NCBI GenBank assembly: GCA_004555725.1
Contig: SFHC01000012.1
Location: forward strand, 89-64,088
Direction: 5' to 3'
DNA from: [Eubacterium] saphenum
Lineage (GTDB): Bacteria > Bacillota > Clostridia > Peptostreptococcales > Anaerovoracaceae
Length of the DNA: 64,000 bases
Part shown: in pieces, positions 5,924 through 56,381 of the stretch
Layout of the letters: every line of letters begins with the position of its first letter
Position numbering within the stretch: position 1 is the stretch's first letter
Program-made: the position numbers and the translations under genes
The notes under the pieces: model-generated
Told to the model about the DNA's origin: nothing
Seen by the model: only the letters and a program-made list of their open reading frames with translations
The model's database searches: none

Positions 5924-5944
5924 CCGTCATGCATACGGGCGCAC

Positions 5945-5990: not shown

Positions 5991-6004
5991 TTACTCAGGC
6001 CGAA

Positions 6005-7964: not shown

Positions 7965-8013
7965 GAGCAATCTACTCCTCTCTTTTCCAAAGAAATATAA
8001 ACGGAATAACTTC

Positions 8014-29715: not shown

Positions 29716-29951
29716 TTCTGCTTCTGCCCCTTTCGCCTTCTACTCGCGCAGTTCTGTTCTCTCAGTTAGTTTTCTCTTCGTATAAGAATCTACCACTTCT
29801 GCAATTACAATTCCATACGAAGATATTGAAACTATTTTCAATGAATAAAAAACTGCCCGTCTTCCAGCATCTGATGACGCCGGAGAACGGACAGTTCCCT
29901 TGCACCGTTATTCTTTTGTCAGAAAACAACTGTGTACAGATCATCCGGCTG

Positions 29952-31199: not shown

Positions 31200-31310
31200 A
31201 GTCAGTGAACTCCTTTCTTTTCATGAATATTTTGATTCTATCCATTGTTCAAGTGTTGAAAATAATTTTAATACTGTTCAGGAAATTCTGCAAGCACTTC
31301 TCTGCGACTA

Positions 31311-32024: not shown

Positions 32025-32269
32025 ATTCCTCCTTTAATATGTAAAACCCTGTATTCAATATATTGAACGATCATTTGTTATTATAATAGCACATATTTTT
32101 GTATATGTAAACCAATAACCGCGGTCTTTTTGTTGTGCAATTATACAATATACACGATCATGTAAATATTTATCCTATAACCGCACGTATATATGTTAAT
32201 TATTTCACACGCAGCAGAATGATACTCCCCCCTTTGACCGTTTCATCCGATCCGCACCTTCAGCATATG

Positions 32270-32313
32270 AAAAACCGCGGGGTTCAGAGCATTTCTGCTT
32301 CGATTCCCCGCGG
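32270..32313 (-). terminator. rho-independent terminator of the beta-helix protein gene
   Basis: Stem CCGCGGGG / CCCCGCGG, followed on the minus strand by TTTTT. Confidence 0.6.
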
Positions 32314-32340
32314 CCCCAGCCTTTCACTTTTATACTTAAC

Positions 32341-33258: not shown

Positions 33259-33402
33259 GAAATATCGCCCTCCTTTCTCGTTCCCTCATTTCCATGAAAT
33301 ATACTCATGAACATTACTATTGTACTCCTCTTTTAACATCACGGCAATTTTGTCACAGCATATTATTAATTCAGACAAAAACAACCCAGCAAGGAGACAA
33401 GT

Positions 33403-34434: not shown

Positions 34435-34716
34435 TTCAGCATACGTTCCTTTCTCATCCGTACATGTACATCCTGCATCTGAACATCTTTCTTTACTTTT
34501 CTTCTCCTGCTTGAGATACTTTGATGAAGCTGTCCGTAATTCTATGCGGCGCATGTACACCTATGTTTTTTTGCCCTTTTGCTGACAAAAGCCAGTTCTT
34601 CTGCTTTACAAAATATTTTACCACGGTAAAATAAAAATATGGAAATACAATGCATAAAAGTATTTCAGACGTGCGTGTATAAATAATTTCAAATAGTCAG
34701 AAAGGAATGTATAGAA

Positions 34717-35337: not shown

Positions 35338-36531
35338 CTATTTCAGTTTCTGAATAAACCGCATGCCGCTCGGATTCTTACTCTGGATCAGCGTATTAAA
35401 ATCAACAATAATATCACCGGCCTGATCCGGACGCTGGTACATGGACGATCCGGCAATCCAGCAGTTCCCGTCTCTGACAGCCTTCAGCTTCCTTATCGCC
35501 GGATCCTTCGCCTTCAGATCAGCTAATGTTCTCACACTGCTGTCGATGCTTCCGTTATAGACGATGATATCTGCGTCTTTTGTCAGCTCGTAGAATTTCT
35601 CCATGTTCATCGGCACGGAAATGCTCTTGCTCGTTTTTCCGACGGAATCATATGCATATGTCCCGCCTGCCATCTTGATCATCGCCGGAACGTAATCATC
35701 GGAGCGGCGGACGACAGCTTTCCCGTCTGTGGAAATGTAGAAGAAAGCGACTGTTTTATGCACACCTTTCTTCAAATGTCTGGTTTTCTCTTCCTGCTTA
35801 TTAAAAAACTTCTCCGCCTGACTTTCCCGGTTCATCAAAACGCCGTAAAGCTTGATCCATTCCATTCTGCCAAGCGGGGTGTCTTCATAACTTGAGCGGT
35901 CCACCAAGACCGGAATATGCAGTTTTTCTATCATATTTTTCACTTCCGGCGTGTGATAGATCATCGTGGACTCCAGCGCAAGATCAGACTTCTCTTTTAC
36001 CAGAAGTTCATAATCCGGCTCGCTGTACTTTCCTGCGAACAGCATCTCTTTCTTTTCCATCCGCTTTTTCGGCTCGGAAAATGACCACTCCGATGCCCGG
36101 ATTGAACTCATCCGAACGGCCTGATCGCCCTGAATGTCACAGAGGAGGGACATTGCCGCCGTCGCTGCCAGATAGACATTCTTCAGCGGCTGCCGGATCA
36201 CTGTAATATCATCAGAAAGCCCTTTTGGCTTGCTCTTTCCCTTTGGAACAACCAGAAAGCTGCCCTCTTGCTTAATAGAAATAACCTTATATCCGCCCTG
36301 ATAACGGTATACCTGAAACTGCTTTGCATAATCCAGTTTCAGGGAAGACTGATACTTCAATCCGGAAATATCCGGATGGCTGCCGGAGCTGCTCCTGGCA
36401 GATCTGCTTCCGGAGCCGGACGAGGATCCCGGTCCGCCGCATCCGGTGATCAGCGCCATCACCATGATAATCGACAGCACGAGCGCGGCCGTCTGTTTTG
36501 CCTTTCCCTTTATTTCTGCATATCTGTTCAT
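35338..36531 (-). CDS. ABC transporter substrate-binding lipoprotein, cluster A (BtuF/FhuD/Peripla_BP_2 type)
   Basis: 397 aa. Lipobox ALITGCGG and a Ser/Gly linker. N-lobe (LKLDYAKQFQVYRY...VIRQPLKNVYL) and C-lobe typical of siderophore/heme/cobalamin binding proteins. Last gene of the riboswitch-gated unit. Confidence 0.85.
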   Translation of the reverse strand: MNRYAEIKGKAKQTAALVLSIIMVMALITGCGGPGSSSGSGSRSARSSSGSHPDISGLKYQSSLKLDYAKQFQVYRYQGGYKVISIKQEGSFLVVPKGKSKPKGLSDDITVIRQPLKNVYLAATAAMSLLCDIQGDQAVRMSSIRASEWSFSEPKKRMEKKEMLFAGKYSEPDYELLVKEKSDLALESTMIYHTPEVKNMIEKLHIPVLVDRSSYEDTPLGRMEWIKLYGVLMNRESQAEKFFNKQEEKTRHLKKGVHKTVAFFYISTDGKAVVRRSDDYVPAMIKMAGGTYAYDSVGKTSKSISVPMNMEKFYELTKDADIIVYNGSIDSSVRTLADLKAKDPAIRKLKAVRDGNCWIAGSSMYQRPDQAGDIIVDFNTLIQSKNPSGMRFIQKLK

Positions 36532-36585: not shown

Positions 36586-39093
36586 TTATCTGCTCTGCGA
36601 TCTGGCATAGCTGCTGAACCAGTTTTCTGCTTCTTTCTCACAGCCCAGCACCGCACCGTAAACCTTCACCCACTCTGCCTGTGCCAGTGTTCCTTTTTCA
36701 CGCGCAGAACGATCGATCAGCACCGGCGTTTCCATTGCTGTAAACAGCTGAATGGCATTATCCAGCTGTGCATACTGTTTACCTGCGTTCTGCTGCGAGA
36801 CAGCTGTTGCGCTCCCCTGTGCAGCGGTCGACTCTGAATCTGGCGCATACCTGTGTACAAAAGACCGGAGGCTTGTTGGGAGAAGGTGATCCGGAAGAAT
36901 TCCGATCACAGAAGCCAGAAAATGCTTGACCGGATGCTGTTCAGCCCTTGCCCTGTCGGCTTTTGTCTGTGCAGCCTCTCCGCGCCCCTGCAACTGCCCT
37001 TCTTCTCTCGGGACTGCTCCGGACGGAAGAATACATAGATCTGTCTTTTCTTCAACGAGATCCCGATAATCCACATGTTTCCAGTCTCCCGGAAACTGGA
37101 CCCGGCCGCTCTTGACACGGCCGCGCAGATCCTGCTCCGCTGACGCCGGCAGACAGCGATACGCTCTGGCGCTGTTGAAGCCGAATGAGCTGAACCGTCC
37201 GGACTGATTCAAAATTCCCGCAAATCGCAGAGCGCTCTGCGAATCAGTATACCCGTGCTTTGGCGTGTGAATAACGATACAGTTCTTATCCAGGCCAGCC
37301 GGGACCGATGCCCCGCTCGGCACAACCAGGTAATTGATGATCCTTCCTTTATAGAGCTGCTGTGTCCGCTCACTCTGCGTCTTCCCTTCCTTTTTTTCCA
37401 GTTCTTCACGGCCGCTTTCGACCTTCGTCTTTTGTTTCTTGTTCCCGTCTGCGCTTCTTCCGGCAGCGTACTTCTCCAAATCCACCTGAATCAGTGTAAT
37501 TCCCCGGCTGTAACGGAAGATCTTAAACAGCTCTGCGTGCTCGACTTTTACAGAAGACTGTTTCTTCAGACCAGCAATTTCCGGCGCTTTCCTGGACAGT
37601 TTCTTTTGTCCGCTCTTCAGCTGCCGTGCAGAAGAAGAATTCCCGCCCTTTCCGCTCAGACCGACATACAAGGTGTACGTAATCCAGTGCGGCTGTGACA
37701 TCGCGACGGTTCTGCCCACAACCTTGTTGTTGGCGTTCAGATGAACCGGAATCACGAACACAGAAGTGCTTCCACCGCTTCCCGACCGCATAAACGTTCT
37801 GCCGTCCGCGCGCAGCTGGTCATAATAAGGACTGTCAAACACGATCGTCGCGTATGCCTTGCCTCCAGTCACCGTGATTTTACTGCATGAAATGCCCTTC
37901 AGCCGTCCTGATCCGCCCGACCAGCTGAACGAACTCGGCGTATAGACGCCGTCCTTTCTGCCCGCGCGGCTGTCCACCCTCGACGTGCTTCCCGACCGGT
38001 CGCTTGTCGACTTTGAGATTCTGTCTTTCTTGTGGTTATTGTGAAATACCTTCTGGACCGTTGTTCCTTCTGCAGTGCTTCTGCGCTTAATTGTATTCTT
38101 CCCTTTCGGAATCACTGTCGCACTGCCCTTGACACGCACGATTCCGCTCGTATAAAATGCAGCCTTATGCTGGTACCATCGGTTTCTCCTCTTGGAATGC
38201 CCGGCGAGCTGAAATTTCTTATTCAGCGTTTTTACCGGAATGGTGTATGAATAATAATTATTGTGGTTTGAGTATCGGATCCAGGTCGATTTCGCCGCTT
38301 TTTCCGCCTGCGCCGCCGTCCCCGGATACAGATAATCGTACCCCTGTCCGGTGAGCGTAATCTTTGCCTTCATTTTCCCGTTCTTCACCGTGAGGATCGC
38401 GTATGTTCCGCCCTGATACGGCTGAATATTGAACATATACTGATCGGTCCACGCCTGAATACGGTAGGTCCCGTTTTTCAGGACGCCGTTCTTAAAGTAT
38501 TTCTTTGATGACGATGACGTTTCCTTCGGCGGCGTCTTTTCTTTCTTATCACTTTTACTTCCTCCGGAATTTTTACTGATGTACGTCTTCGCTCCTTTGT
38601 TCAGACCGACATTCAGCGCATAAGCAATAGCATGGGGCGCACCCATTCTGGTGGTCACCGCGGATACATCAGTAGGTTCATTTATCCGGACGGGCACGAC
38701 AAAGGTTGATGTGCCAAGGGTATGATCGACATCAGAGACATACTCTTTACCGTCAACCGTCATCCTTGTGTAATACGCGCTGTGAAAGACAATCTCTGCA
38801 GACGCACCGCTGTCATCAATTTTTACCCAGTCACATGTGATCTTTACTTTTCCCGTTCCTCCGGAAAAAGTAAACGACGACGGCACATACTTTCCTGCAG
38901 ATATTCCGGACTGCCCGGCACTCTTAGAACCGGATAAAACAGAATCCGATGCCGCAGATGTCTCCGTTTCTGCGTGTGAGGAAAATTCCGGAAACGTCTC
39001 TGCCGCAGCCGTGCTGAAGCTCAGCAGTACGGCCGCAGACAGAGCCGCGGCGCCTATCCTCTTCATGATCGCCTTATGATATTTAATCTGCAT
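36586..39093 (-). CDS. secreted multidomain protein: signal peptide - D2 - D1 - D2 - half substrate-binding protein (N-lobe only)
   Basis: ATG 39093 (RBS GGGAG). Signal peptide ...LLSFSTAAAETF. Two copies of a ~100-aa domain I call D2 (PSSF(T/S)(F/W)SGG(T/S)G...IVF.S.YY...DG...FV(V/I)PV...PH.I.Y.L.VGL) at nt 38602-38895 and 37654-37950. One copy of a domain I call D1 at nt 38149-38475. The C-terminal 330 aa (nt 36589-37578) are paralogous to the N-lobe of the downstream SBP. Confidence 0.7.
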   Translation of the reverse strand: MQIKYHKAIMKRIGAAALSAAVLLSFSTAAAETFPEFSSHAETETSAASDSVLSGSKSAGQSGISAGKYVPSSFTFSGGTGKVKITCDWVKIDDSGASAEIVFHSAYYTRMTVDGKEYVSDVDHTLGTSTFVVPVRINEPTDVSAVTTRMGAPHAIAYALNVGLNKGAKTYISKNSGGSKSDKKEKTPPKETSSSSKKYFKNGVLKNGTYRIQAWTDQYMFNIQPYQGGTYAILTVKNGKMKAKITLTGQGYDYLYPGTAAQAEKAAKSTWIRYSNHNNYYSYTIPVKTLNKKFQLAGHSKRRNRWYQHKAAFYTSGIVRVKGSATVIPKGKNTIKRRSTAEGTTVQKVFHNNHKKDRISKSTSDRSGSTSRVDSRAGRKDGVYTPSSFSWSGGSGRLKGISCSKITVTGGKAYATIVFDSPYYDQLRADGRTFMRSGSGGSTSVFVIPVHLNANNKVVGRTVAMSQPHWITYTLYVGLSGKGGNSSSARQLKSGQKKLSRKAPEIAGLKKQSSVKVEHAELFKIFRYSRGITLIQVDLEKYAAGRSADGNKKQKTKVESGREELEKKEGKTQSERTQQLYKGRIINYLVVPSGASVPAGLDKNCIVIHTPKHGYTDSQSALRFAGILNQSGRFSSFGFNSARAYRCLPASAEQDLRGRVKSGRVQFPGDWKHVDYRDLVEEKTDLCILPSGAVPREEGQLQGRGEAAQTKADRARAEQHPVKHFLASVIGILPDHLLPTSLRSFVHRYAPDSESTAAQGSATAVSQQNAGKQYAQLDNAIQLFTAMETPVLIDRSAREKGTLAQAEWVKVYGAVLGCEKEAENWFSSYARSQSR

Positions 39094-39216
39094 CAATATG
39101 CACTCCCTGATCTCTGTCTCCTTAGAAAAGAAAGCTGCAGCCCCAGCCTCCTGCCGGTTCGATATATATCCCCCGCATATGAACTGGATTGACCGCAGCC
39201 CTTTTTATCCGCTTGG

Positions 39217-40011
39217 TTATTTAATCTTTGCCGCCTTCACCTTGCTCCATCCGGAGTAGCCGGACTTGTATCCGTTGAAATGCTCCGTGCGGACGCGGAA
39301 ATAGTACGTCTTTCCACTCTTCAGATTCTTCACCGTTTTCTCTGTCACATCGTTATAATACACGCTGGCGGTTTTTGCGCCCTTCATGGTTTTTTTGGAC
39401 GCGTACTGAACCTGATAGCCAGTTCCGTTTTTCGTGACCTTTTTCCAGGAAAGAATTGCCGCTTTTTTCTTTGGCGTTAATTTCTTGATCGTAGTTTTTG
39501 CCGGCGCGGCAATCTTGGCGTGCTCAAGATTCTTTTCCTTACCCGTGTAAGTCAGCGTAAGCGTATGCTGGTACCACGTCTGCCGTTTCGCGCTGTGTCC
39601 GAGAACGGAAAGGGTCGTATCGCCCTTGACCAGATCTTTTCCATCTTTCGTCAGCGGAATCGTAAAGTAGTAGGAGTCGCCGCGTCTGACCTTATGCTCG
39701 ATCTGGCCGGCTGCATCTTTCTCCGCTTCTTCTGAAGAAGTCCCCACATACAGTTTATCAAACCCCTGTGCTGCAAGCCGGAAAGTGACTGTTTCCTGTC
39801 CGTTTTTTACCGTCAGAAATGCCATCTGGTTATCCAGGGCATTCACATGGAACATAGGACTGTCTGTTTTTGCAGGAATGGCATACACCCCGTCCGGTAT
39901 CTTTGCTGCTTCCGTATTGCTTCCTGTGTCCGTGTCCGCAAATGCGGCCATGCTCATCGCCATAACTCCGGCGCATGCCGCTGCACCGATTTTTAATGCT
40001 GTTTTTCTCAA
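39217..40011 (-). CDS. secreted protein: signal peptide - D1 domain - fibronectin type III-like domain
   Basis: TTG start at 40011 with RBS AAGGAG. Signal peptide ...MSMAAFADTD. D1 (nt 39547-39894) is homologous to the D1 domain of the 835-aa protein. The C-terminal AAILSWKKVTKNGTGYQVQYA...KTYYFRVRT looks like FN3. Confidence 0.65.
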   Translation of the reverse strand: MRKTALKIGAAACAGVMAMSMAAFADTDTGSNTEAAKIPDGVYAIPAKTDSPMFHVNALDNQMAFLTVKNGQETVTFRLAAQGFDKLYVGTSSEEAEKDAAGQIEHKVRRGDSYYFTIPLTKDGKDLVKGDTTLSVLGHSAKRQTWYQHTLTLTYTGKEKNLEHAKIAAPAKTTIKKLTPKKKAAILSWKKVTKNGTGYQVQYASKKTMKGAKTASVYYNDVTEKTVKNLKSGKTYYFRVRTEHFNGYKSGYSGWSKVKAAKIK

Positions 40012-40032: not shown

Positions 40033-41421
40033 TTATTTCATCATTGCTGCCGTATGCTGAACATAGATCTTCTGAATCGATTTCAGTGATCCGAGTCCGG
40101 CTACCTGCGCACTTACCTTAAACCCTGCTTTTTTCAGCTGCGATTTCCAGGAATCCGCATCGTTACCGGCGATATCATTATTCGCATGGTCTCCTGCGAC
40201 AACCATCATGCCGCGGATGACCACCTTCTTATATCCCTTCTTCTTCAGTTTCTTAATAATTGACGCAGAAGAGGTTGCCGCCGGCTTGCCTTCAACCGTT
40301 CCGACATAGACATTTTTATATCCCAGCTTATCGTAGTCCTTCTGCATTCTCGTGTACGTTACACGGTTCGCGTGAGAGGTTCCATGTCCAATAAATACGA
40401 ACGCCGTCTTATTTCCCGCCTTCTTCAGTGATGAAGTCTTAACTCCGGCCTGTCTTGCAGACGATTCCGCGAGCGCCTTCGCGACCGTTTTTCTATCTTT
40501 ATCTGATTTCAGCAGCGGACTGGCGATTTTCACAGTCTTCACACTGCCCTTATTTGCCTTTACATTTGCCTTCAGTAAATCATACTCTTCTCCGCTCATC
40601 AGTGTTGTCGGCTGAACGATCAGCGTCTTGACGCCTGCCTTATTGGCTTTTTCCAGTGCTTCTCTCACCGTGTCAATCCGGTATTCATCTCTTGCCAGAA
40701 TATGATTGATGATGACCTGTGAAGTAAATGCTCTTCTTACGGAATATTTCTTCCCATACTTATACTGGAGCGCCTTCTCGATTCCTCCGATCGTCTGGTA
40801 ACGGCTCGCATTGAAACTCGTTCCAAAGCTGACGACCAGAATCTCCGCTTTCTTATCCGGTGCTGCGCATACCTTTTTGGTCCATGCTTTATCCTTGGAA
40901 GCACTTCCGATCGGTGCCGCAGTGGAAAAATAATCCGCTCCGCCTGCTCCCGGATACTCGTACCCGTCCGGGATTTCCGGCACAGCCTTCTTATCGGCGT
41001 CAGAAAGCTTATCATACGCGTATTTTGCAATTTTTGCCACTCTTGCAACCATCTCCGTCTGTGCCTTCTGCTCTTCCGGAGTTGTCTTCGGATGAATGTA
41101 AATCTCACCGATCAATCCGGCAACCAGGAGCGGGCTGTCATTTTTGTCCACAAAAGCCTTTCCCTGTTCCAGCGTCATCTGTGTAATCTTACCGGTAATC
41201 TCCCTGACATTATCTTTAGAAATCGTAACTTTTTCTGCAGTCTGCGCACCGGTTTCTGCCTTCACAGCACTCTCCTCCTGTACAGTTTTTGCCGATGTAC
41301 CTGCCACCTGTGTCCCCGCATTCTGCGCGTCCGCAAATGCTGGCGCAGCAGCGAGCATGCTGGTTGCAACGGCTGCTGACAAAGCTGCAGTCATAAACTT
41401 ATTCAGCTGTTTCTTTTTCAT
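40033..41421 (-). CDS. exported CbiK-type class II chelatase homologue with ~170-aa N-terminal extension
   Basis: Start moved to ATG 41421 (RBS GGAAAGGAAA). Signal peptide MKKKQLNKFMTAALSAAVATSMLAAAPAFADA. The C-terminal 290 aa align with sirohydrochlorin cobaltochelatase CbiK (ILVVSFGTSF..., FIGHGTSH, VVAGDHANNDIAG, GLGSLKSIQKIYVQH). Confidence 0.8.
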   Translation of the reverse strand: MKKKQLNKFMTAALSAAVATSMLAAAPAFADAQNAGTQVAGTSAKTVQEESAVKAETGAQTAEKVTISKDNVREITGKITQMTLEQGKAFVDKNDSPLLVAGLIGEIYIHPKTTPEEQKAQTEMVARVAKIAKYAYDKLSDADKKAVPEIPDGYEYPGAGGADYFSTAAPIGSASKDKAWTKKVCAAPDKKAEILVVSFGTSFNASRYQTIGGIEKALQYKYGKKYSVRRAFTSQVIINHILARDEYRIDTVREALEKANKAGVKTLIVQPTTLMSGEEYDLLKANVKANKGSVKTVKIASPLLKSDKDRKTVAKALAESSARQAGVKTSSLKKAGNKTAFVFIGHGTSHANRVTYTRMQKDYDKLGYKNVYVGTVEGKPAATSSASIIKKLKKKGYKKVVIRGMMVVAGDHANNDIAGNDADSWKSQLKKAGFKVSAQVAGLGSLKSIQKIYVQHTAAMMK

Positions 41422-41463
41422 GATATCTGTTTCCTTTCCCGGTTCTTGAAAAGAGCCGCTCTC

Positions 41464-41750
41464 AATAAAATAACCTTCTGCCAAAATATGGCAAAAGGCA
41501 TACGGATAGAATGGAATCTATCGCATGTGCCAGTATCTCGTGGCGCGGAATACTCCGCTGCGATCATATCCAGGCAGGTCTCCTGACTCGCAGATTATGA
41601 CTTCTGCCGCCTTCCCACGCGCTGAGAGTGCGCGCAGTGGCATGGGTTGGCTTCTGCAATCCGCTTACAGTGACGAAGTTCGTACAGGACTTTCACCTGT
41701 TTCCCTTTTCAATGGCAGCCTGTTCTCTTATAGACTGTCATCACCTGAAC
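41464..41750 (-). promoter_or_regulatory. cobalamin (B12) riboswitch with intrinsic terminator
   Basis: Minus strand reads GGTGATGAC...AAAAGGGAAACAGGTGAAAGTCCTGTAC...CACTGTAAGCGGA...GCCACTG...GGGAAGGC...AGTCAGGAGACCTGCC, which covers the B12-box and flanking conserved blocks. The terminator is CCTTTTGCCA-TATT-TGGCAGAAGG plus TTATTTTATT (41464-41498). Confidence 0.9.
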
Positions 41751-41759
41751 GATATAAAA

Positions 41760-41788
41760 ATTATAGCATGTAGTCGTTGAGCTTTCAA
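41760..41788 (-). promoter_or_regulatory. sigma-70 type promoter in front of the B12 riboswitch
   Basis: Minus strand has TTGAAA (41788-41783), a 17-nt spacer and TATAAT (41765-41760). It sits about 57 nt downstream of the cbiC stop. Confidence 0.55.
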
Positions 41789-41844: not shown

Positions 41845-42552
41845 TCACCCGCGGTTATCCGGATCCAGCCAACCCGCCGCCGTGTACAGAAGCGCATTCA
41901 CAATAGCAGCGGCTACATTGCTTCCGCCCTTTCTTCCCATCGCTATAATCGCCGGCACCTGACATTCTTCACAGGCAGCGAGCAGCATCTCCTTACTCTC
42001 CACTACATTTACAAAACCGACCGGAACACCAACCACCAGCGCCGGGCGCAGACCTCTGCGGATCTGTTCGGAAAGGGAGATCAGCGCCGTTGGCGCATTC
42101 CCGGAAACAAACACTGCATGCGGATGATTTTTCCCCGCATATTCCATAGATGCCCGGGCACGTGTGATGCCTTCTTCTTTTGCTGCCGATGCAATCCCGG
42201 GATCCGCCATATAGCAGACTGCCCGCACATCCAGTTTCTCCATCGCCCGTTTACTGATTCCAGTCAGCGCCATATTGGTATCCGTCACGATGATTTTAGA
42301 ACGTGCCGGCGAATCTCCGGCTAAGCCGGCATTACGCATGGAAAAATACCGGACGCCTGCCTGAGGCCCGTTTCCCGTAAACCGCAGAGTCTCCGCATAC
42401 TCAAAATCCGCGCTGGTATGAATCGCCCGCAGAATAACCGCACGCATCGCCGGATCTTCCGAAAGATGAATTCCTCTTTCATCCAGCTCCTGCGTAATGA
42501 TGCGCATACTGGTGCGTTCAATGTCTCCAGGTTTTACATGCTGTATTCCCAT
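41845..42552 (-). CDS. cbiC: cobalt-precorrin-8 methylmutase
   Basis: Start moved to ATG 42552 (RBS AAAGGAG). IHTSADFEYAETL and FVSGNAPTAL blocks. Confidence 0.9.
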   Translation of the reverse strand: MGIQHVKPGDIERTSMRIITQELDERGIHLSEDPAMRAVILRAIHTSADFEYAETLRFTGNGPQAGVRYFSMRNAGLAGDSPARSKIIVTDTNMALTGISKRAMEKLDVRAVCYMADPGIASAAKEEGITRARASMEYAGKNHPHAVFVSGNAPTALISLSEQIRRGLRPALVVGVPVGFVNVVESKEMLLAACEECQVPAIIAMGRKGGSNVAAAIVNALLYTAAGWLDPDNRG

Positions 42553-42609
42553 CACAGCCGCTCCTTTCTCTGTTCGTCTCCTGCCCTGTTTATCCACAGA
42601 AGCTCTGCT

Positions 42610-44163
42610 TTATCCCCGCTGCTGCCTGCGGAATACGATATCATAAACCGCGTCCATGTCTAGCGCAGCCCGGACACTGTTCGCGAGTTTATCATATTCC
42701 CTGTCTTCATACTCTTTTCGGCTTATCCGTTTTTTCCCCGTGTAAGAAAGGCCCTTTCTCTCACAGAGCCATGCAGCCAGCTTTTCTGTAACTTCTCCGC
42801 TGTCAAAAAGGCCGTGCAGGTATGTGCCAAACACATTGCCGCTCCAGCAGCCATCATCTTTTCCCTCGCCGTTTTCTGTCTTGTCCGGATAGTTCTGATT
42901 CCCGTCATCCTGCGCAATACGGCTGAACGCCTTTCCACGCACATCCGTAACACCCATATGAATTTCATATGCGTCAACCGAAGCACCGGAAAACGGTTCC
43001 GCTAAAACAGTTCCGCACATCCGTGTCCGCGTCTTTTTCCCGGTAAACACTGTCCTGACCGGAAGGAGCCCCATTCCTTTCATACCGTCAAGACTGCCTT
43101 CTGTATGCTCCGGATTAAGAAGCTCCTCGCCCAGCATCTGATATCCTCCGCAGATCCCGAGAACCGCTCCGCCACGGCCCGCAAACTTCCGGACAGTCAT
43201 TTCCAGGCCTGACTCCCTCAGCCATGCCAAGTCATCCAGGGTGCTTTTTGTCCCCGGAAGAATGACCAGATCCGGAGAACCGAATTCATCCGCGCGTTCG
43301 ACATACCGCACATCCATCATCGAGTCCGACTCCAGCGGGGCCAGATCCGTAAAATTAGAAATCCGCGGAAACCGAATCACTGCAATATCGAGCACCGCGC
43401 GGGAATCATCCTGCTGCCCTGTCCGCCGCAGGCGCGGAGCCAGAGAATCTTCTTCATCAATATCCACATACATGTACGGGATAACGCCCAGAACCGGAAT
43501 GCCCGTCCGCTCTTCAATCATGCGCACGCCCGGCGTCAGGATATCCTTATCTCCCCGGAACTTATTGATCAGCATGCCCTTAATCCTTCTGCGCTCGGAT
43601 TCTTCCAGCAGGGCCGCCGTTCCATAAAGCTGCGCAAACACGCCTCCGCGGTCAATATCTCCCGCCAGCAGAACTGGAGCATCCACCATCTCTGCAAGCC
43701 CCATATTCACAATATCGTGCTGTTTAAGATTAATTTCCGCAGGACTTCCCGCACCCTCGATCACAATGATGTCATTTTCCCGTTCCAGTGAATGGTACGC
43801 TTCCATAATATCCGGAATGAGCTTCTCCTTATACCGGAAATACTCACGGGCATCCATATCCCCGAGCACTTTTCCGTTAACGATCACCTGGCTGCCGACG
43901 TCACTGGACGGCTTCAGAAGAATCGGATTCATTCGCACATCCGGCTCGACTCCTGCAGCTTCAGCCTGCATAACCTGCGCGCGCCCCATTTCCAGTCCGT
44001 CTGCAGTAATCCAGCTGTTCAGCGCCATATTCTGACTCTTAAACGGAACTGTCTTCCAGCCGTCCTGACGGAAGATGCGGCAAAGAGCGCCGCACAAGAG
44101 GCTTTTTCCTGCTCCTGACATTGTTCCCTGCACCATAATGTTCCATGCTTTTCGACCGTTCAT
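42610..44163 (-). CDS. cbiP: cobyric acid synthase
   Basis: 517 aa. P-loop GTMSGAGKS. C-terminal glutamine amidotransferase domain with ICGGYQMLG. Confidence 0.92.
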   Translation of the reverse strand: MNGRKAWNIMVQGTMSGAGKSLLCGALCRIFRQDGWKTVPFKSQNMALNSWITADGLEMGRAQVMQAEAAGVEPDVRMNPILLKPSSDVGSQVIVNGKVLGDMDAREYFRYKEKLIPDIMEAYHSLERENDIIVIEGAGSPAEINLKQHDIVNMGLAEMVDAPVLLAGDIDRGGVFAQLYGTAALLEESERRRIKGMLINKFRGDKDILTPGVRMIEERTGIPVLGVIPYMYVDIDEEDSLAPRLRRTGQQDDSRAVLDIAVIRFPRISNFTDLAPLESDSMMDVRYVERADEFGSPDLVILPGTKSTLDDLAWLRESGLEMTVRKFAGRGGAVLGICGGYQMLGEELLNPEHTEGSLDGMKGMGLLPVRTVFTGKKTRTRMCGTVLAEPFSGASVDAYEIHMGVTDVRGKAFSRIAQDDGNQNYPDKTENGEGKDDGCWSGNVFGTYLHGLFDSGEVTEKLAAWLCERKGLSYTGKKRISRKEYEDREYDKLANSVRAALDMDAVYDIVFRRQQRG

Positions 44164-44298
44164 CCTGTATCTCTCTTCTACTTCCTATTATTCTCACCTG
44201 TCAGTTATTCTTTGTTTCCATCGTTTCTGTCTGTTCTGCCGATTTCTGCTCTATGCTCTTCCGGCATTCCTGTGATCTGCCTGCGTTCGCATTCTGTT

Positions 44299-45507
44299 CT
44301 ATGCTTCTCTGCATTTCTCTGTTCCGGCGATTTCAGGATCCCTGCAGTTTCTTTCCTGCATACATGCCCGGACAGCCTGTACCAGACGGACATTATCACT
44401 GTGTCCTCTGACGCAGACACGAATCCAGTTCCTGTCCAGTCCATGGTAATTCCCGCAGTCCCTTACCAGAATGCCGCGTTCAGCGAGTGGCTCAGCGAGC
44501 TTTCTGTCAGCATGAATGAGCAGATAATTGGCTTCCGCGCGGCTGATAAATGTAATGCCCTTGATCTTCAGAAGTTCCTGACGGAGATATCCCCGCTCTT
44601 TTTGATTCTGCTCACGATACTGTTCAATATATCCAGTCTCCTGAAGAGCAGCAAGTCCGGCAGCCTCTGCTCCTGCGGATATCGGCCATGAAGGGCCGCA
44701 TAATGCTGCGCGCCTGCGAATCTCTCGGTCAAAAAATATACCGTACCCGAGGCGGATTCCGGGCATGGCAAACAGTTTGGTAAATGAACGGAGGAGAATC
44801 AGATTGGCGCAGTTCTGCGCTTCGGAAATAAAGCTGTGCGCGCTTGGTTCATCCGTCAGTCCGATAAACGATTCATCCACAACCAGCAGGATTCCGCGTT
44901 TTTGACATTCTTCCAGCAAGGCTTGCAGCGCTTTCCGATTTGTCGTTCTCCCAGTCGGATTATTTGGCTCACAGAGAATAATCATCTCCGCCTGACGCTC
45001 ATATTCCTGCCGCTGAAAACCCGTATGCTCTGCATCCCGTTCCGCAAGTTCCAGCAATTCATCGATTCTTCCATCCAGAAGAAATTCATCTTCTTCTCTA
45101 AGCAGAAAACGGCTGACAGCAGAACCCGCCGCAGTCAGCGCGCGCTCATATTCACTGAATGTCGGCGCCGTGATCACTGCGCGAGATGGCCTGCAGCTTA
45201 ACAAGACGCGGAAAATAAGGTCCGAAGCCCCCGCTCCCGGAAGAATCTGCCATTGCTGAAGACTCTCCTTTTCCGCCAGAGCCGCTGTCAGTCTGCTCTG
45301 CACCGGATCAGGGTACTCCTGTGCATGCTGAAGCGCGCGTTCTGCGGCCTGTCTTACAGAATCCGGCATCCCCAGCGGATTCACATTAACTGAAAAATCC
45401 AGCGGGACTATTCCATACTGCTCCCGGTACCGGTTTAATTCTCCTCCATGCTCACTGCTCTGAAAAAAATCCAAGTCTTTTCCTTTCTGATAATCATAAT
45501 TCTGCAA
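44299..45507 (-). CDS. cobD: threonine-phosphate decarboxylase (class I/II aminotransferase fold)
   Basis: 402 aa. HGGELNRY...DFSVNVNPLGMP N-terminus. PLP-lysine context LRSFTKLFAMPGIRLGY. Confidence 0.85.
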   Translation of the reverse strand: MQNYDYQKGKDLDFFQSSEHGGELNRYREQYGIVPLDFSVNVNPLGMPDSVRQAAERALQHAQEYPDPVQSRLTAALAEKESLQQWQILPGAGASDLIFRVLLSCRPSRAVITAPTFSEYERALTAAGSAVSRFLLREEDEFLLDGRIDELLELAERDAEHTGFQRQEYERQAEMIILCEPNNPTGRTTNRKALQALLEECQKRGILLVVDESFIGLTDEPSAHSFISEAQNCANLILLRSFTKLFAMPGIRLGYGIFFDREIRRRAALCGPSWPISAGAEAAGLAALQETGYIEQYREQNQKERGYLRQELLKIKGITFISRAEANYLLIHADRKLAEPLAERGILVRDCGNYHGLDRNWIRVCVRGHSDNVRLVQAVRACMQERNCRDPEIAGTEKCREA

Positions 45508-45589
45508 TGTTTCCCGTCCCTCTCTGCAGAACCTCCGTTTGACCGGACCTCAGAGCGACGTTTCACTCACGGCTTTATTACTCTTACAC

Positions 45590-46591
45590 TCAGCGGAGCA
45601 GAATCCAGAAGATCACCGCCCGGAGAGTGAAGAAAATAACTAAACCGGCAGAAGATGCCGCTCCCAGCATCCTGCAGCAGCGCAGGATATCACCTCGCTC
45701 AATCGGACGATCCGCATCGCCGATAGCCGGCTTATCATAGATTTTGCCGAAATACTGCGCCGGACCTGCCAGCTGCACATGAAGCGATCCGGCGCAGGCG
45801 GATTCCGTCTGCGCGGAGTTCGGGCTTGCATGCTTCCTGCTGTCTCTTTTCCATATCCGCAGCGCGTTTTTTCCGTCATTTCCGGTCATCGCTGCGCCGA
45901 GCGCCCAGAGAAGCGCCGCGATTCTGGATGGAATGTAATTCACCACATCATCCATCCGCGCACCGACCCTGCCAAAATAGAGATACCGTTCATTCCTGTA
46001 CCCGATCATGCTGTCCAGGGTATTCACCGCCTTATACGTCAGAGCCAGCGGTGCGCCGCCGATCGCCATATAAAACAGCGGGGCGATCACACCGTCAGAA
46101 AAGTTTTCCGCAACTGTTTCACAATCTGCCTTGATGACTCCGGTTTCATCCAGTACAAACGTGTCTCGTCCCACAATTCTGCCCACATCCTTCTGTGCCT
46201 GTTCCAGCGTTCCCTCCGGCGGCAGGCTGTGGTAGACGTTCACAGCTTCTTTCTGCAGACCCCGCATTGCGAGTGCCTGCCAGCACCAGAGTGTCTGCAG
46301 AGCAAATCCGAGAACCGGATGAATACGCAATGCAGCTGTACAGAGAAAACCTGTAACCAGCAATGTCGTAATGACGGTGATTCCGGCAGTCAATGCGCCT
46401 CCTGCAAGTTCACCTCCTGAAGTTTTTGGGAAAAGCTTCCTGAAAAAACGTTCCAGAGAAGAAATTTCCTTCCCTATGATCACGACCGGATGAGGAAAAT
46501 GAAAAGGATCGGCCAGAAGCAGATCCAGCAGCGCACCCGCTCCTGCAGAAGCTTCTGTAATGATAAAATACATGATCCAGTGGTTCATCAA
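45590..46591 (-). CDS. cbiB: adenosylcobinamide-phosphate synthase
   Basis: 333 aa membrane protein. FPHPVVIIGK and HASPNSAQTESACAG blocks. ATGA overlap with the cbiA stop. Confidence 0.9.
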   Translation of the reverse strand: MMNHWIMYFIITEASAGAGALLDLLLADPFHFPHPVVIIGKEISSLERFFRKLFPKTSGGELAGGALTAGITVITTLLVTGFLCTAALRIHPVLGFALQTLWCWQALAMRGLQKEAVNVYHSLPPEGTLEQAQKDVGRIVGRDTFVLDETGVIKADCETVAENFSDGVIAPLFYMAIGGAPLALTYKAVNTLDSMIGYRNERYLYFGRVGARMDDVVNYIPSRIAALLWALGAAMTGNDGKNALRIWKRDSRKHASPNSAQTESACAGSLHVQLAGPAQYFGKIYDKPAIGDADRPIERGDILRCCRMLGAASSAGLVIFFTLRAVIFWILLR

Positions 46592-48009: not shown

Positions 48010-48037
48010 GCACCTTCTCCTTCTCTATCATCCGCCA

Positions 48038-49300: not shown

Positions 49301-49307
49301 CTGCTTT

Positions 49308-50135: not shown

Positions 50136-50167
50136 GCGTTTTTTCTGCTCCTGCCAGGCACAGCTTC

Positions 50168-50905: not shown

Positions 50906-50967
50906 TCTGTCCCTCTTTTCTCTGTTTTCCATCTTTCTATTGCTGCAAACACACGGTTTCCAGTTAT

Positions 50968-52862: not shown

Positions 52863-54029
52863 TTATTCTCCCTCCGAAATCTTCACATTCCAGTCTTTCA
52901 ATATTGCTTCCGCGGCTGCCGTTAATCCAAGCAGTGTATCCGTGTTGTACACTGCCGCGCCGACCTGAACAGCTCCCTCCGCCCTGCGGTCCAGATGGTG
53001 CTGTATCCGTTCAAGCAGAGCATCCATCACATCATGGAACAGTCCCGCTCTTCTGAGAATATCCACCGCCTCATCCGTCACCGCACAGTGCATCAGAGCC
53101 CGGCACGTCTGCGAATCCGCTCCCAGACAGGCGGCATGCGCCGTCAGAAGTTCCATTCGGCAGTCCCCCATCCGTGAGTGCGTGTTCATCATACCACCGG
53201 CGAGTTTCACCATCTTTCCGAAATGCCCGACCAGCAGTATCCGTTTATACGCAAGCGTTTTAGCGATATCCACTGCGTCACCGATGAAATTGGAGCACTG
53301 CACAAGCGGAGCACGCTTCAGCACTCCGCCCATATGCCCCTGCTCCAGAAACGTCTGTCCGTAATTGCCCGGAACAAGAATCAAATTCTCCGACACCGTC
53401 CTCTTCTGCTTCATGTCCACTTCAATCGTGTCCACCAGCGCCTGCTCGCTCATCGGCTCCACGATTCCCGTCGTTCCGAGAATTGAAATGCCTCCCATGA
53501 CGCCAAGCTGTGGATTGAACGTCTTTTCCGCCAGTTTCTCACCTTCAGGGACAAAAATCACCGCGGCTGCGCCGCGCTCTGCAAGGGGATAATCAAAACG
53601 CTCCGCACACGTCCTCATCGCCTCTTCAATCATTTCTCTCGGGACATGATTGATTGCCGCTGCGCCAACAGGCTGATCCAGCCCCGGTTTCGTCACTCTG
53701 CCGACACCTTTGCCTCCGTCAATCAAAATTCCCGGCTTCTCCCTCAGTGAAACCCGGGCGCCGATCAGCGCGCCGTCCGTTGCATCACAATCGTCCCCGG
53801 CATCTTTTCTGACCATGCAGATTGCATCTGTACGGCCTGCATTTTCAAACACGCATTCTGCTGGCCGGACATCTACCGGGATTCCCTTTCGCGTCATCAG
53901 ACGCAGTCTCTCAGGAGCATGCCCTGTCAGAAGCATCTGGAATGCGCCGGAAGCCGCAAGCGCCGCACAGGTGCCAGTCGTAAACCCGAGCCGCAGCATC
54001 TTATTCCCACTTCTTACATATTCTTCCAT
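52863..54029 (-). CDS. cbiD: cobalt-precorrin-5B C1-methyltransferase
   Basis: Start moved to ATG 54029 (MEEYVRSGNKMLRLGFTTGTCAA), overlapping the end of the ATPase gene. ATG 53999 is an alternative. The LR.G(F/Y)TTGTCA block is diagnostic. Confidence 0.88.
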   Translation of the reverse strand: MEEYVRSGNKMLRLGFTTGTCAALAASGAFQMLLTGHAPERLRLMTRKGIPVDVRPAECVFENAGRTDAICMVRKDAGDDCDATDGALIGARVSLREKPGILIDGGKGVGRVTKPGLDQPVGAAAINHVPREMIEEAMRTCAERFDYPLAERGAAAVIFVPEGEKLAEKTFNPQLGVMGGISILGTTGIVEPMSEQALVDTIEVDMKQKRTVSENLILVPGNYGQTFLEQGHMGGVLKRAPLVQCSNFIGDAVDIAKTLAYKRILLVGHFGKMVKLAGGMMNTHSRMGDCRMELLTAHAACLGADSQTCRALMHCAVTDEAVDILRRAGLFHDVMDALLERIQHHLDRRAEGAVQVGAAVYNTDTLLGLTAAAEAILKDWNVKISEGE

Positions 54030-55210
54030 CCGCTCTCCCAAGTCTGAAAAAAATCCTCCGGCGAATAACACTTCTGTAACGCACGCGCATATTCCCGCAG
54101 CCTGTTCAGCGCGTCCGGCGCCTTCATTCCTTGCGGACATCCTGCGTCAATCACATACCCTGCCCGATCAACCATCCTCTTTGCCTCCTGCAATTCTTCC
54201 TTCCCCGGCAGGCAGAAAGGCGGTACGCTTACAGTGTTCACTGCCGTTTCCCTGGCCAGATGATAATCTGCATCCAGTTCACTCAGCAGCCCTGCAGAAA
54301 ACGGAATGCCCAGTTTCTGAAGCTTTCGGTAGACTGGAATGCCCGTTCCGCCCATAGACAAAACGACCACCTTGTCCAAGTCTTCCTTTTGTCCCTGCTG
54401 AACCTGCATTTCCTGCGGCGCGGCAAACTCAACGGTACTGAACAACGCATCATAATAGCCGTTCTGCATTCCGTACAGCTGCTGTATCGTCTCCCGGCGA
54501 AACACGGTTTCCGGCGGACCGGCCTGTATAATTTTCTGTTCCCCGACACAGACCACAAGATCCGACACTTTCTGCGCCAGATCGATTTCATGCAGCGACA
54601 TCAGAACCGTCATCCCCCTGCTTCTGGTCATTCTCTGCAGAACCGACAGCAGCTCCAGTTTATACTTGATGTCAAGATAAGACGTCGGCTCGTCCAGAAC
54701 CAGCAGCTTCGGCTCCTGACAAAGCGCACGCGCAAGGAGAATCCTCTGTTTCTGCCCGTCACTGATCTGCAGAAAATCACAGTCTGCAATAGCCTCCGCA
54801 TGGACATCATGCAGTGCCTGGTTTACCTTAAGTTCATCCACATCGGATAAGAGCCCAAATGCGCCGGTATACGGATACCGTCCAACCGCAACAATATCCC
54901 TGCACGTCAGAAGCTCCGGGTTCACCCTCTCGGTCAGCACAGCCGCCATTCTCTGCGCCGCTTCCCGCTGCGAGTACGCGCTCAGGCTGCGTCCAAAAAG
55001 CTGGATGTCCCCGGAAATGACCGGGAGCTCCCTTGTAATACTCTTCAAGAGCGTAGATTTCCCTGCTCCATTTGGCCCGATCAGCGTTGTGATTCTTCCA
55101 GCCGGAATCTCAAGATTCACCGGCCCCAGCACCCGTTTATGCCCGTACCCGACACATACAGAACGGAGGACAAGGGCAGTCTGACACGTTCCTTCGAGAC
55201 CACTATCCAT
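54014..55210 (-). CDS. ABC transporter ATP-binding protein (FecE/BtuD type) with ~140-aa C-terminal extension
   Basis: Start moved to ATG 55210 (RBS AAGGAGG). Walker A GPNGAGKST, signature ISDGQKQRILLARAL, Walker B LLVLDEPTSYLD. Residues from about 260 to 398 lie outside the ABC fold. Confidence 0.85.
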   Translation of the reverse strand: MDSGLEGTCQTALVLRSVCVGYGHKRVLGPVNLEIPAGRITTLIGPNGAGKSTLLKSITRELPVISGDIQLFGRSLSAYSQREAAQRMAAVLTERVNPELLTCRDIVAVGRYPYTGAFGLLSDVDELKVNQALHDVHAEAIADCDFLQISDGQKQRILLARALCQEPKLLVLDEPTSYLDIKYKLELLSVLQRMTRSRGMTVLMSLHEIDLAQKVSDLVVCVGEQKIIQAGPPETVFRRETIQQLYGMQNGYYDALFSTVEFAAPQEMQVQQGQKEDLDKVVVLSMGGTGIPVYRKLQKLGIPFSAGLLSELDADYHLARETAVNTVSVPPFCLPGKEELQEAKRMVDRAGYVIDAGCPQGMKAPDALNRLREYARALQKCYSPEDFFQTWESGWKNM

Positions 55211-56381
55211 GGCGCAACCTCCTTCTCTGCAGCATGATGTACAGCACGATCGGCGCTCCAAAGATCGACGTAACCGTGCTGATGTTCAGCTCCGTCGGAG
55301 CAAATGCCGTCCGCGCGATCAGATCACAGACCATGCAGAACAGCGATCCCGTCAGAAACGAAGCCGGTATAACCAGAATCGGTCTGGATGTCCCGAGCAT
55401 TTGCTTGGCCAGAAACGGAACAGCGATTCCAACGAAAGAGATCGGACCTGCAAATGCCGTCACACATCCGGACAGCAAACTCGACAGGAGAATAATCTCT
55501 GCCCGAAAACGCTTTACATTAACACCCATGCTTGCCGCATACGCCTCTCCCAGCTGATAAGCGCCAATCGGCTTGGAAAGCAGGAACGTCAAAACCGACG
55601 CAGCAAGGACAATCATCCCGGAAACCCGCACATCCTGCCAGCTCATGCCGGAAAACGACCCCATTGACCATCCGTGCAGATTGACGACATCGGAATCTTT
55701 TGCAAACGTCGTCAGAAAATCCGTTGCCGCGCTGCAGATGTATCCGATCATGATTCCGGCAAGCAGCAGCGCCGCTGAATTCTTGATCCACTGCGAAAAC
55801 AGCAGCACCAGCCCTGTCGCCGCAAGCGCTCCGAGAAACGCCGCCGTCACAAGCACTCCGGAACCGAGCTGCGGAATGCGGGTGATCAGGAGAATCATCA
55901 CAATTGCGACCGCAAGCTTGGCGCCGGACGAAATCCCCAGCACAAAAGGCCCTGCTATTGGATTTTCAAAGAACGTCTGGAGCAGAAAACCGGCAAGCGC
56001 GATCGCCCCTCCAAGCATCATGCCTGTCAGGATTCTCGGAAGCCGGATCGTCCATATAATATTGAGGACATCAGCCCTTCCAGTTTTGAAAATTACAGCT
56101 TTGATCAGCTCCGGAACAGAAATCCGGACATTTCCGGTATTGACAGAGATAACCGTCACAGCACCGAGCGCCAGAAACAGCAAAAGAAAGACTGCCGTAT
56201 AGCGCGACCGCCTTCTTTTCTTTGTTCTTCTCCAATGAAAATTATTTCTGCTGCCGGCACTCAAATTCTGCCCGGCAGATTCAATATCTGTCAGTTTTGA
56301 TTCCGTTCTCTGTTGTCCTGTATTTCTGCCTTCCAAGAGGCCTGTTTCCTTTCCTATTTCTTTTTGTCCTCTGTCACTCAC
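55203..56381 (-). CDS. ABC transporter permease, FecCD/BtuC family
   Basis: 392 aa (GTG start in the track; the true start is uncertain). IRLPRILTGMMLGGAIALAGFLLQTFFENPIAGPFVLGISSGA is typical of FecCD. It overlaps the ATPase start by 8 nt. Confidence 0.85.
   Translation of the reverse strand: MSDRGQKEIGKETGLLEGRNTGQQRTESKLTDIESAGQNLSAGSRNNFHWRRTKKRRRSRYTAVFLLLFLALGAVTVISVNTGNVRISVPELIKAVIFKTGRADVLNIIWTIRLPRILTGMMLGGAIALAGFLLQTFFENPIAGPFVLGISSGAKLAVAIVMILLITRIPQLGSGVLVTAAFLGALAATGLVLLFSQWIKNSAALLLAGIMIGYICSAATDFLTTFAKDSDVVNLHGWSMGSFSGMSWQDVRVSGMIVLAASVLTFLLSKPIGAYQLGEAYAASMGVNVKRFRAEIILLSSLLSGCVTAFAGPISFVGIAVPFLAKQMLGTSRPILVIPASFLTGSLFCMVCDLIARTAFAPTELNISTVTSIFGAPIVLYIMLQRRRLRHG

Follow-up and report, generated by a model that had tools for sequence, protein, structure and literature searches.

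A 64,000-nt stretch of the [Eubacterium] saphenum genome (GenBank assembly GCA_004555725.1, contig SFHC01000012.1, positions 89 to 64,088 of the forward strand; hereafter the window, in which position 1 is the first letter) was analysed computationally, taking as the centre of interest an open reading frame (ORF) at 40033-41421. This ORF lies on the minus strand and specifies a protein in which a CbiK-type chelatase domain follows a predicted signal peptide and a helical module. A first-pass annotation, made from the letters of the same DNA, had proposed that the product is an extracytoplasmic tetrapyrrole or corrinoid binder, or possibly a metal exchanger, and not the chelatase of the cobalamin (B12) pathway. 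The present analysis supports an extracytoplasmic protein that handles a tetrapyrrole or corrinoid and is distinct from the pathway chelatase, and adds to the earlier description the strand, a riboswitch, the partner genes, the btuC and btuD genes that head a neighbouring cbi operon, and the absence of cbiL from the window. The gene and its control elements are listed below in the direction of transcription; domain limits are given in amino acids (aa), and pLDDT stands for the predicted local distance difference test score of the AlphaFold model.

41760..41788, minus strand: promoter-like site, TTGAAA-17-TATAAT with a TG extension (11 of 12 consensus positions matched; a consensus match only)
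41556..41763, minus strand: cobalamin riboswitch aptamer, RF00174 (104 bits against a gathering score of 31.5; match over the full length of the model)
41463..41499, minus strand: intrinsic terminator, an 11-bp stem (41499-41473) plus a T-tract, between the aptamer and the start codon
~41432-41437, minus strand: ribosome-binding site AAAGGA, ~10 nt upstream of the ATG
40033-41421, minus strand: exported CbiK-like ORF, 462 aa, ATG at 41421
41332..41421, minus strand: start codon and Sec type I signal peptide, aa 1-30, predicted cleavage AFA/DA
41227..41331, minus strand: low-complexity disordered linker, aa 31-65 (pLDDT <50 for residues 22-60)
40852..41226, minus strand: conserved helical N-module, aa 66-190 (pLDDT >90, and conservation)
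40036..40851, minus strand: CbiK-fold class II chelatase domain, aa 191-462 (Pfam, Foldseek and alignment)
40384-40386, 40291-40293 and 40186-40188, minus strand: codons of H346, E377 and H412, respectively

A cobalamin riboswitch unit and its first gene

Because the riboswitch, the promoter-like site and the terminator all precede it, the exported CbiK gene was taken to be the first of its own B12-attenuated unit, apart from cbiC, the end of which lies 423 nt upstream. The terminator is the predicted expression platform of the riboswitch. The unit comprises four genes, spaced by 21, 120 and 54 nt and followed by a gap of 777 nt. After the CbiK-like gene come those of a 264-aa and an 836-aa secreted protein and, last, that of a substrate-binding lipoprotein (coordinates below). 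No LPXTG sortase signal was found in the proteins of this unit.

The first 30 residues of the 462-aa protein read MKKKQLNK, then FMTAALSAAVATSMLAAAP, and end at the predicted cleavage site AFA/DA (the predicted N-terminus as a whole being MKKKQLNKFMTAALSAAVATSMLAAAPAFA/DA). The n-region is basic, the h-region hydrophobic and the cleavage motif of the A-x-A type, in agreement with the signal peptide reported by the first-pass annotation; this N-terminus contains neither a lipobox nor a twin-arginine motif. A longer reading frame starting at the TTG at 41484, which could have provided a cytoplasmic N-terminus, was rejected as implausible because that codon sits within the terminator stem. The opposite error, a true start at an internal methionine beyond the hydrophobic stretch, had been raised beforehand as a way in which export might turn out to be an artefact. 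The ATG at 41421 is served by the AAAGGA sequence and has the terminator upstream of it, and export signals are kept family-wide. Signal-like N-termini, called by a hydrophobicity and charge heuristic with a lipobox check, were found in 115 of the 120 best homologues, 89 of these with a lipobox, the remaining five resembling fragments that lack the N-terminus. The same heuristic recognised them at 76 of 80 genomic loci (63 with a lipobox). Since such N-termini are kept across both homologues and loci, export can be considered a property of the family, and not an artefact of the start call.

The CbiK domain, the N-module and their relatives

Pfam and Foldseek both place a two-lobed class II chelatase fold in the 462-aa protein. 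The Pfam CbiK family (PF06180) spans aa 194-460 with an E-value of 1.8e-65. An AlphaFold model built from 36 family members (mean pLDDT 87.8; predicted template modelling (TM) score, pTM, 0.82) was compared with solved structures by Foldseek, which rendered TM scores of 0.87-0.89 for the CbiK part against 1qgo, 9b86 and 2xvx. The full-length CbiK fold seen in the first-pass annotation was therefore recovered, and so were the two histidines to which it had drawn attention: H346 (in FIGHGTSH) and H412 (in VVAGDHANND) align with H145 and H207 of Salmonella CbiK, while E377 aligns with E175, and F199 with F10, the residue under the macrocycle. F199, H346, E377 and H412 were invariant in a 36-sequence alignment of exported homologues. 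Public annotation gives the proteins of this family as sirohydrochlorin cobaltochelatases, but the 462-aa protein scored 171.2 bits with the cobaltochelatase equivalog model NF047852, below its cut-off of 400. A hidden Markov model (HMM) scan of all six frames of the window revealed no second CbiK domain, and Pfam detected neither CbiX nor CobN among its plausible-gene ORFs of at least 150 aa; the protein is, as had been stated, the only chelatase homologue found in the window.

The sequence preceding the CbiK domain, described earlier as about 170 unassigned residues, amounts to 160 (aa 31-190) and could be resolved into the disordered linker and the helical N-module. The latter ends in a DYF...G..D loop (consensus DYFGxDTGDASKDDPLN in most relatives) and is always found directly N-terminal to the CbiK domains of one clade. 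Searches of Pfam and the PDB rendered no significant relative of the N-module, even with a 27-sequence profile. The best matches of that profile, a helix of yeast EAF1 (E = 0.055) and scattered COX4 entries, were set aside as noise, with no credible relative among them. Most N-modules have a conserved cysteine in the second helix (consensus TDxxCxxAKxAWD), which the subclade of the window protein lacks; in the B12 transporter BtuM, the cobalt ligand is a cysteine (PMC6072759). Tandem duplication of the N-module plus the CbiK domain was observed in homologues P0007-P0037 and at loci L023, L024, L069 and L082, rendering proteins of ~750-1,600 aa. The two copies in P0021 are near-identical, which suggests a recent duplication and some benefit of multivalency.

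In a crude neighbour-joining tree of 147 CbiK domains, the phylogenetic comparison that the first-pass annotation had called for, the CbiKs bearing an N-module grouped in a single clade (62 of 64) that excluded Salmonella CbiK, Desulfovibrio CbiK(P) and Porphyromonas FetB/IhtB. A few short clostridial CbiKs without a signal peptide fell beside or inside this clade, suggesting that the exported forms descend from a cytoplasmic clostridial CbiK. When proteins of solved structure were ranked by sequence, FetB/IhtB was the closest (E = 7.7e-33), followed by Salmonella CbiK and then by CbiK(P).

Salmonella enterica CbiK (1qgo, 2xwp; TM score 0.89) has the same two-lobed fold and the counterparts of all four active-site residues, but it is a cytoplasmic protein of 264 aa, without signal peptide or N-module, encoded inside a cbi operon. 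CbiK(P) of Desulfovibrio vulgaris (2xvx, 2xvy, 2xvz) is closer in its setting. It is an exported CbiK fold with an intact His/Glu/His cobalt site, a good structural match (TM score 0.88), and a cobalamin riboswitch precedes its gene, which has btuCDF-type genes beside it (PMC545781, PMC11124144); export signal, riboswitch and transporter linkage are thus common to both proteins. Nevertheless, its sequence identity is 29%, the weakest of the three PDB matches, it resides in a Gram-negative periplasm, and no N-module or NEAT-like partner was seen for it in this analysis or reported in the sources cited here. The positions of its haem residues, His96 and His103, are taken by Asp281 and Lys288 in the window protein, Asp281 being nearly invariant in the family.

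FetB/IhtB of Porphyromonas gingivalis (9b86), with 35% identity, shares with the window protein an EYD motif in place of the haem histidine of CbiK(P). IhtB is a surface-exposed CbiK-like protein encoded beside a lipoprotein, a FecCD-type permease and an ATPase (IhtCDE; PMC12094164), so that in both cases a CbiK homologue lies near the genes of an importer of this kind. FetB binds haem, shows Co and Mn chelatase activity on porphyrin in vitro and is needed for the production of Mn-protoporphyrin (PMC13065792); a dechelatase role has been proposed for it (PMC12094164, PMC13065792). It differs in being an outer-membrane lipoprotein of a Bacteroidota species, encoded together with a TonB-dependent receptor, while the window protein has no lipobox and Pfam scans of the window revealed no such receptor. 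Neither PMC12094164 nor PMC13065792 describes a B12 riboswitch, an N-module or NEAT-like partners. An exported CbiK paired with a FecCD-type importer is thus found in three phyla, represented by Desulfovibrio, Porphyromonas and the Firmicutes. The Firmicute version forms a separate clade with an N-module and NEAT-like partners of its own.

These data bear on the simplest alternative, namely that the ORF encodes an ordinary cytoplasmic pathway cobaltochelatase and that the signal peptide and N-terminal extension reflect a wrong start call. The public annotation would fit, as would the fact that this is the sole CbiK homologue in a window that carries cbiD, F, G, H, J, ET, A, B, P and C. However, the signal peptide and the N-module are kept under selection in hundreds of homologues, mostly with lipoboxes, the N-module is modelled with a pLDDT above 90, and relatives are in many cases fused to extracellular NEAT-like and fn3 domains. 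In addition, the riboswitch terminator and the ribosome-binding site fix the start at the signal-peptide ATG, the equivalog score is far under its cut-off, and cbiL is also missing from the window, implying another biosynthetic locus. A wrong start call is accordingly hardly credible.

NEAT-like partners, importer genes and the layout in other genomes

The remaining genes of the riboswitch-controlled unit, and the operon that lies upstream of it on the same strand, are as follows.

39217..40011, minus strand: 264-aa secreted protein with a signal peptide, a NEAT-like domain, here named B (aa 31-168), and a basic fn3 domain (aa 169-262)
36586..39096, minus strand: 836-aa secreted protein with three NEAT-like domains and a C-terminal half resembling a binding protein
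35338..36531, minus strand: BtuF/IsdE-type substrate-binding lipoprotein, Peripla_BP_2 (PF01497, E = 2.3e-27), lipobox LITGC/GG
41845-56381, minus strand: cbi operon, in the order btuC, btuD, then cbiD, F, G, H, J, ET, A, B, cobD, cbiP and cbiC
55203..56381, minus strand: BtuC-like FecCD permease (PF01032, E = 5e-77), first gene of the cbi operon
54014..55261, minus strand: BtuD-like ABC ATPase (PF00005; the listed ORF start is probably too far upstream)

Domain B looks like a divergent NEAT domain, although the assignment is marginal. The Pfam NEAT model (PF05031) matched the partner domain with 19.1 bits (gathering score 32.8; E = 0.0018). When a domain B profile was run against the PDB, the top four matches were all NEAT domains (IsdX1 and IsdX2-N5, E ~0.02), the alignment to NEAT5 of IsdX2 running end to end. 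A conserved sMF of domain B falls on the NEAT lip helix and a W-Y-x-H on the YxxxY strand; the iron-ligand tyrosine (the first of YxxxY) is not conserved, while the position of the second is kept. The AlphaFold model of the 264-aa protein (pLDDT 77) shows a beta-sandwich of seven main strands with a short helix, residues 58-60, at the position of the lip. Foldseek with this two-domain model rendered only generic tandem immunoglobulin (Ig) plus fn3 matches; it is uninformative on likeness to NEAT because the fn3 domain dominates the model.

The 836-aa protein, which had no Pfam match above threshold, contains domains A (~aa 60-170), B (205-328) and A' (~375-485); domain A is homologous to domain B (hhalign 99.7%, E = 2e-25). 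Its start codon is uncertain, MKRIG at aa 11 being the likely start. The C-terminal half (aa 505-830), a diverged copy, with long insertions, of the N-lobe of the binding lipoprotein encoded next to it (BLASTP, 2e-12 and 6e-10), may serve as a docking or hand-over domain. By sequence, no relatives of solved structure were found for either the 836-aa protein or the binding lipoprotein.

For the importer, all the parts of a BtuFCD-type system (PF01497, PF01032 and PF00005) are present in the window, the gene of the binding protein being under the cobalamin riboswitch. The sole NCBIfam match of this lipoprotein was a weak one, to IsdE. The best NCBIfam match of the permease was BtuC (208 bits against a cut-off of 334), and that of the ATPase a corrinoid ABC transporter ATPase (206 bits against 537). 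The permease is presumed to be the membrane partner of the four-gene unit. A riboswitch of its own for the btuC-btuD-cbi operon was sought and rejected: no cobalamin riboswitch was found upstream of that operon even in a permissive scan (E up to 1). The operon includes neither cbiK or cbiX nor cbiL, and the absence of cbiL from the entire window suggests a second biosynthetic locus elsewhere, not an exported CbiK filling the gap; cytoplasmic cbiK or cbiX and cbiL may be encoded there.

With its multi-NEAT receptors, lipoprotein and FecCD permease, the four-gene unit resembles the Isd haem relay (IsdX1, IsdX2, IsdA/B/C/H, IsdE, IsdF), in which NEAT-type proteins feed a Peripla_BP_2 lipoprotein and a FecCD permease; here, a chelatase-fold protein stands at the head. 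The differences are that the sequence similarity is marginal, that W-Y-x-H replaces the iron-ligand tyrosine, that LPXTG signals are absent, and that Isd is regulated by iron, while the window unit has a cobalamin riboswitch and a chelatase-fold component.

The layout was then compared across genomes. An exhaustive search of 1.84 billion representative proteins rendered 441 clusters of the family at E <=1e-30, and a scan of species-representative genomes at least 593 encoded relatives. The best 80 of these were used for a locus survey, made by nhmmer with a riboswitch alignment, with HMMs for the three domains, and by phmmer with the window proteins. The 80 loci came mainly from Lachnospiraceae (including Butyrivibrio, Pseudobutyrivibrio, Blautia, Roseburia, Agathobacter, Mediterraneibacter, Marvinbryantia and Eubacterium ramulus) and Eubacteriaceae, with some from Oscillospiraceae; among the matches listed, the closest was that of Eubacterium sp. 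F2 (83% identity; NZ_CP176393.1, locus L009). Five loci of Lachnospiraceae type (L022, L034, L060, L064 and L081) were in assemblies labelled Thermoguttaceae, Bacteroidaceae, Spirochaetaceae or Treponema, reflecting either horizontal transfer or contamination of metagenome bins.

The N-module directly preceded the CbiK domain at all 80 loci. Where at least 400 nt of upstream DNA was available, a same-strand cobalamin riboswitch lay 12-441 nt upstream (median 170) at 74 of 76 loci. Rfam confirmed the five positives sampled (L009, L050, L066, L071 and L079) and both negatives; equivalent riboswitches likewise precede the homologous gene in L001, L006, L007 and L008. Domain B was fused to the CbiK protein at 22 loci and encoded by the next gene at 61, one or the other being true of all 80. 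It had already been seen in the next gene at every locus first examined, including a standalone one, L003. The fusions are varied: domain B is C-terminal in an abundant 543-aa group and N-terminal in others, and many CbiK proteins, of up to 1,623 aa, consist of one to three copies of domain B, then the N-module, then CbiK. A word-indexed search with the 264-aa protein rendered seven close relatives, and the diversity of domain B was gathered from the CbiK fusions and the loci.

Downstream, genes for a substrate-binding protein, BtuC or BtuD were present at 64 of the 72 loci with at least 5 kb of sequence on that side. De novo synthesis genes (any of cbiD, F, G, H, J or ET) followed the transporter genes at 17 loci; only late or salvage genes (cbiP, cbiB, cobD) were found within the 10 kb read at 18 of the 72. 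None of the 80 loci had a further CbiK domain within ~10 kb of the gene. In other genomes the module, made up of riboswitch, exported CbiK, NEAT-like genes and btuFCD, opens the operon to which the cbi genes also belong. Since the module is joined to the cbi operon there, the lineage of the window and Eubacterium sp. F2 seem to be rearranged. At L003 (10001-11805), the genes for an exported CbiK lipoprotein (397 aa) and a domain B protein (176 aa) stand beside hrcA-grpE-dnaK, with neither riboswitch nor transporter, so that the pair of CbiK and NEAT-like proteins is not confined to a B12-regulated context.

The partner domains also raise the question of the ligand. Acquisition of haem or a porphyrin, through an Isd-like NEAT relay and haem binding of the IhtB/CbiK(P) kind, with the B12 riboswitch an incidental link, is suggested by the NEAT-like domains themselves, by the weak IsdE match of the binding protein and by the haem binding of CbiK(P) and IhtB/FetB, the exported CbiKs that have been characterised. 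Against this, the riboswitch is present at nearly every locus and the module is physically joined to cbi genes, the iron-ligand tyrosine of NEAT is not conserved in domain B, the two haem histidines of CbiK(P) are replaced, and the window protein lies outside the FetB and CbiK(P) branches. Haem or porphyrin acquisition is thus considered unlikely. The presence of the chelatase fold and the NEAT-like domains, joined or adjacent, at all 80 loci suggests instead a tetrapyrrole relay with a non-haem ligand.

A candidate system for corrinoid capture

That the 462-aa protein is not the sirohydrochlorin cobaltochelatase of the pathway is supported by its predicted export signals, by the fusions, the riboswitch and the operon partners, by the layout in the 80 genomes and by the equivalog score (171 against 400 bits). 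The explanation that best fits the data, and which is probably correct although held with modest confidence, is that it is a CbiK-fold surface receptor in a B12-repressed system for the capture and import of a cobalt tetrapyrrole, the best candidates being cobamides and incomplete corrinoids.

Such a system might work as follows. The riboswitch would turn the four-gene unit off through transcription termination. When corrinoids are scarce, the cell would secrete the CbiK-like protein, the NEAT-like/fn3 protein and the 836-aa protein with its three NEAT-like domains, and make the BtuF-like lipoprotein; together with BtuC and BtuD, the products of the four genes would form a Gram-positive surface capture-and-import system of Isd-like build. 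The most likely cargo would be cobamides, or else incomplete corrinoids, of which cobinamide and cobyric acid are examples. The macrocycle would sit in what was once the chelatase cleft of the CbiK domain, with His346 and His412 near its metal, and the N-module would form a lid or offer a surface for docking. From there the NEAT-like domains would pass the ligand to the lipoprotein, which would deliver it to the ABC importer. In this scheme we infer the identity of the ligand, the direction and order of its transfer, and binding alone as opposed to the insertion or removal of metal.

A different role, possible if unlikely, is that of an active surface chelatase or dechelatase, which would insert Co2+ into an extracellular tetrapyrrole, or remove or exchange its metal. 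The cobalt-tetrapyrrole might, for example, be imported as a cobalt source for de novo B12 synthesis; in another variant, scavenged metallo-tetrapyrroles would be repaired or stripped, as proposed for IhtB/FetB. Class II chelatases need no ATP, so extracellular catalysis would be feasible, and the four active-site residues are invariant across the exported family. However, no metal-free substrate outside the cell is known for these gut anaerobes, which speaks against this role. Importers of the FecCD plus Peripla_BP_2 type under cobalamin riboswitches are classically corrinoid importers, and the 18 loci with only late or salvage genes fit the import of ready-made corrinoids better than a supply of cobalt. 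On the other side, the Pfam scans of the window detected no cobalt transporter, the module heads de novo cbi operons in many genomes, and FetB, the best PDB sequence match, is active as a Co and Mn chelatase in vitro (PMC13065792). Binding and catalysis can also coexist, and a chelatase activity would be compatible with a receptor. The more specific proposal of a working extracellular enzyme that loads or unloads cobalt in a tetrapyrrole, followed by a NEAT-like relay and BtuFCD-type import, the whole serving as a cobaltophore-like supply for B12 synthesis, is regarded as rather unlikely.

Several points weigh against the preferred explanation, a surface receptor for corrinoids. The corrinoid assignment derives from the riboswitch and the type of transporter, and the binding protein, the permease and the ATPase all score under their NCBIfam equivalog cut-offs. 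The strict conservation of the His/Glu/His set exceeds the obvious need of a passive binder and would fit retained catalysis. The NEAT assignment is marginal (19 against 32.8 bits; PDB E ~0.02; generic Ig/fn3 matches in Foldseek). L011 and L064, and the more distant standalone L003, have no riboswitch. That the 462-aa protein stays at the surface is an assumption, as it carries neither a lipid nor a cell-wall anchor, and a cytoplasmic cbiK elsewhere in the genome is a presumption.

To our knowledge, surface corrinoid capture by Gram-positive gut bacteria is essentially undescribed, unlike that of Bacteroides, which involves BtuG, BtuH and BtuJ. We know of no report of a chelatase or NEAT-like fold in these three proteins; their envelope setting and, as far as is known, their folds are unrelated to those of the window system. 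The logic is nonetheless the same: BtuG, BtuH and BtuJ are surface B12-binding lipoproteins of gut bacteria that are controlled by riboswitches and feed BtuB/BtuFCD (PMC6143338, PMC8941943, PMC13616437). The conserved riboswitch-controlled module reported here is a concrete candidate for the equivalent function in Gram-positive cells. It is widespread in gut Clostridia and apparently uncharacterised; no description of the Firmicute exported-CbiK family, or of NEAT-like corrinoid binders, was found in a literature search from which many subscription papers were absent. The module also has implications for what other exported CbiKs, among them CbiK(P) and IhtB/FetB, do in the cell envelope. The gut Lachnospiraceae and Eubacteriaceae in which it occurs (Roseburia, Blautia, Agathobacter, Butyrivibrio, Eubacterium) are major players in the sharing of B12 in the gut. 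CbiK/CbiX serves as a signature gene when B12 prototrophy is predicted from genomes (PMC6593275), and discrepancies in such predictions have been noted (PMC7360928). With an exported paralogue annotated as a sirohydrochlorin cobaltochelatase, counting it could give false calls of biosynthetic capacity.

Other features were recorded near some of these loci. Locus L008 has a second, divergently oriented cobalamin riboswitch (7305-7484, minus strand, 80 bits) before a gene of the xanthine/uracil permease family (5921-7234, minus strand), the product of which could be a B12-regulated transporter of a purine or benzimidazole lower ligand. Riboswitches of the c-di-GMP-I class were seen at L008 (213-288, plus strand), where one precedes a gene for a 1,817-aa surface protein with Flg_new repeats, and at L071 (1850-1925, plus strand). 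Elsewhere in the window, the cluster at 28618-34560 (minus strand) encodes an S58 (DmpA-like) peptidase, a beta-helix protein, a VanX-like D-Ala-D-Ala dipeptidase, a DUF819 membrane protein and a D-Ala-D-Ala ligase, and probably serves unrelated cell-wall metabolism; the S58 peptidase and ligase genes are also found downstream of the operon in a close relative (L001). Finally, a lysine riboswitch (RF00168, 8127-8303, minus strand, 83.9 bits) overlaps the listed start of an ORF of the Na+/H+ antiporter family (NhaC-type) at 6309-8255. A lysine riboswitch placed before a lysine transporter gene is a known arrangement, and the product of this ORF is presumably a lysine transporter.

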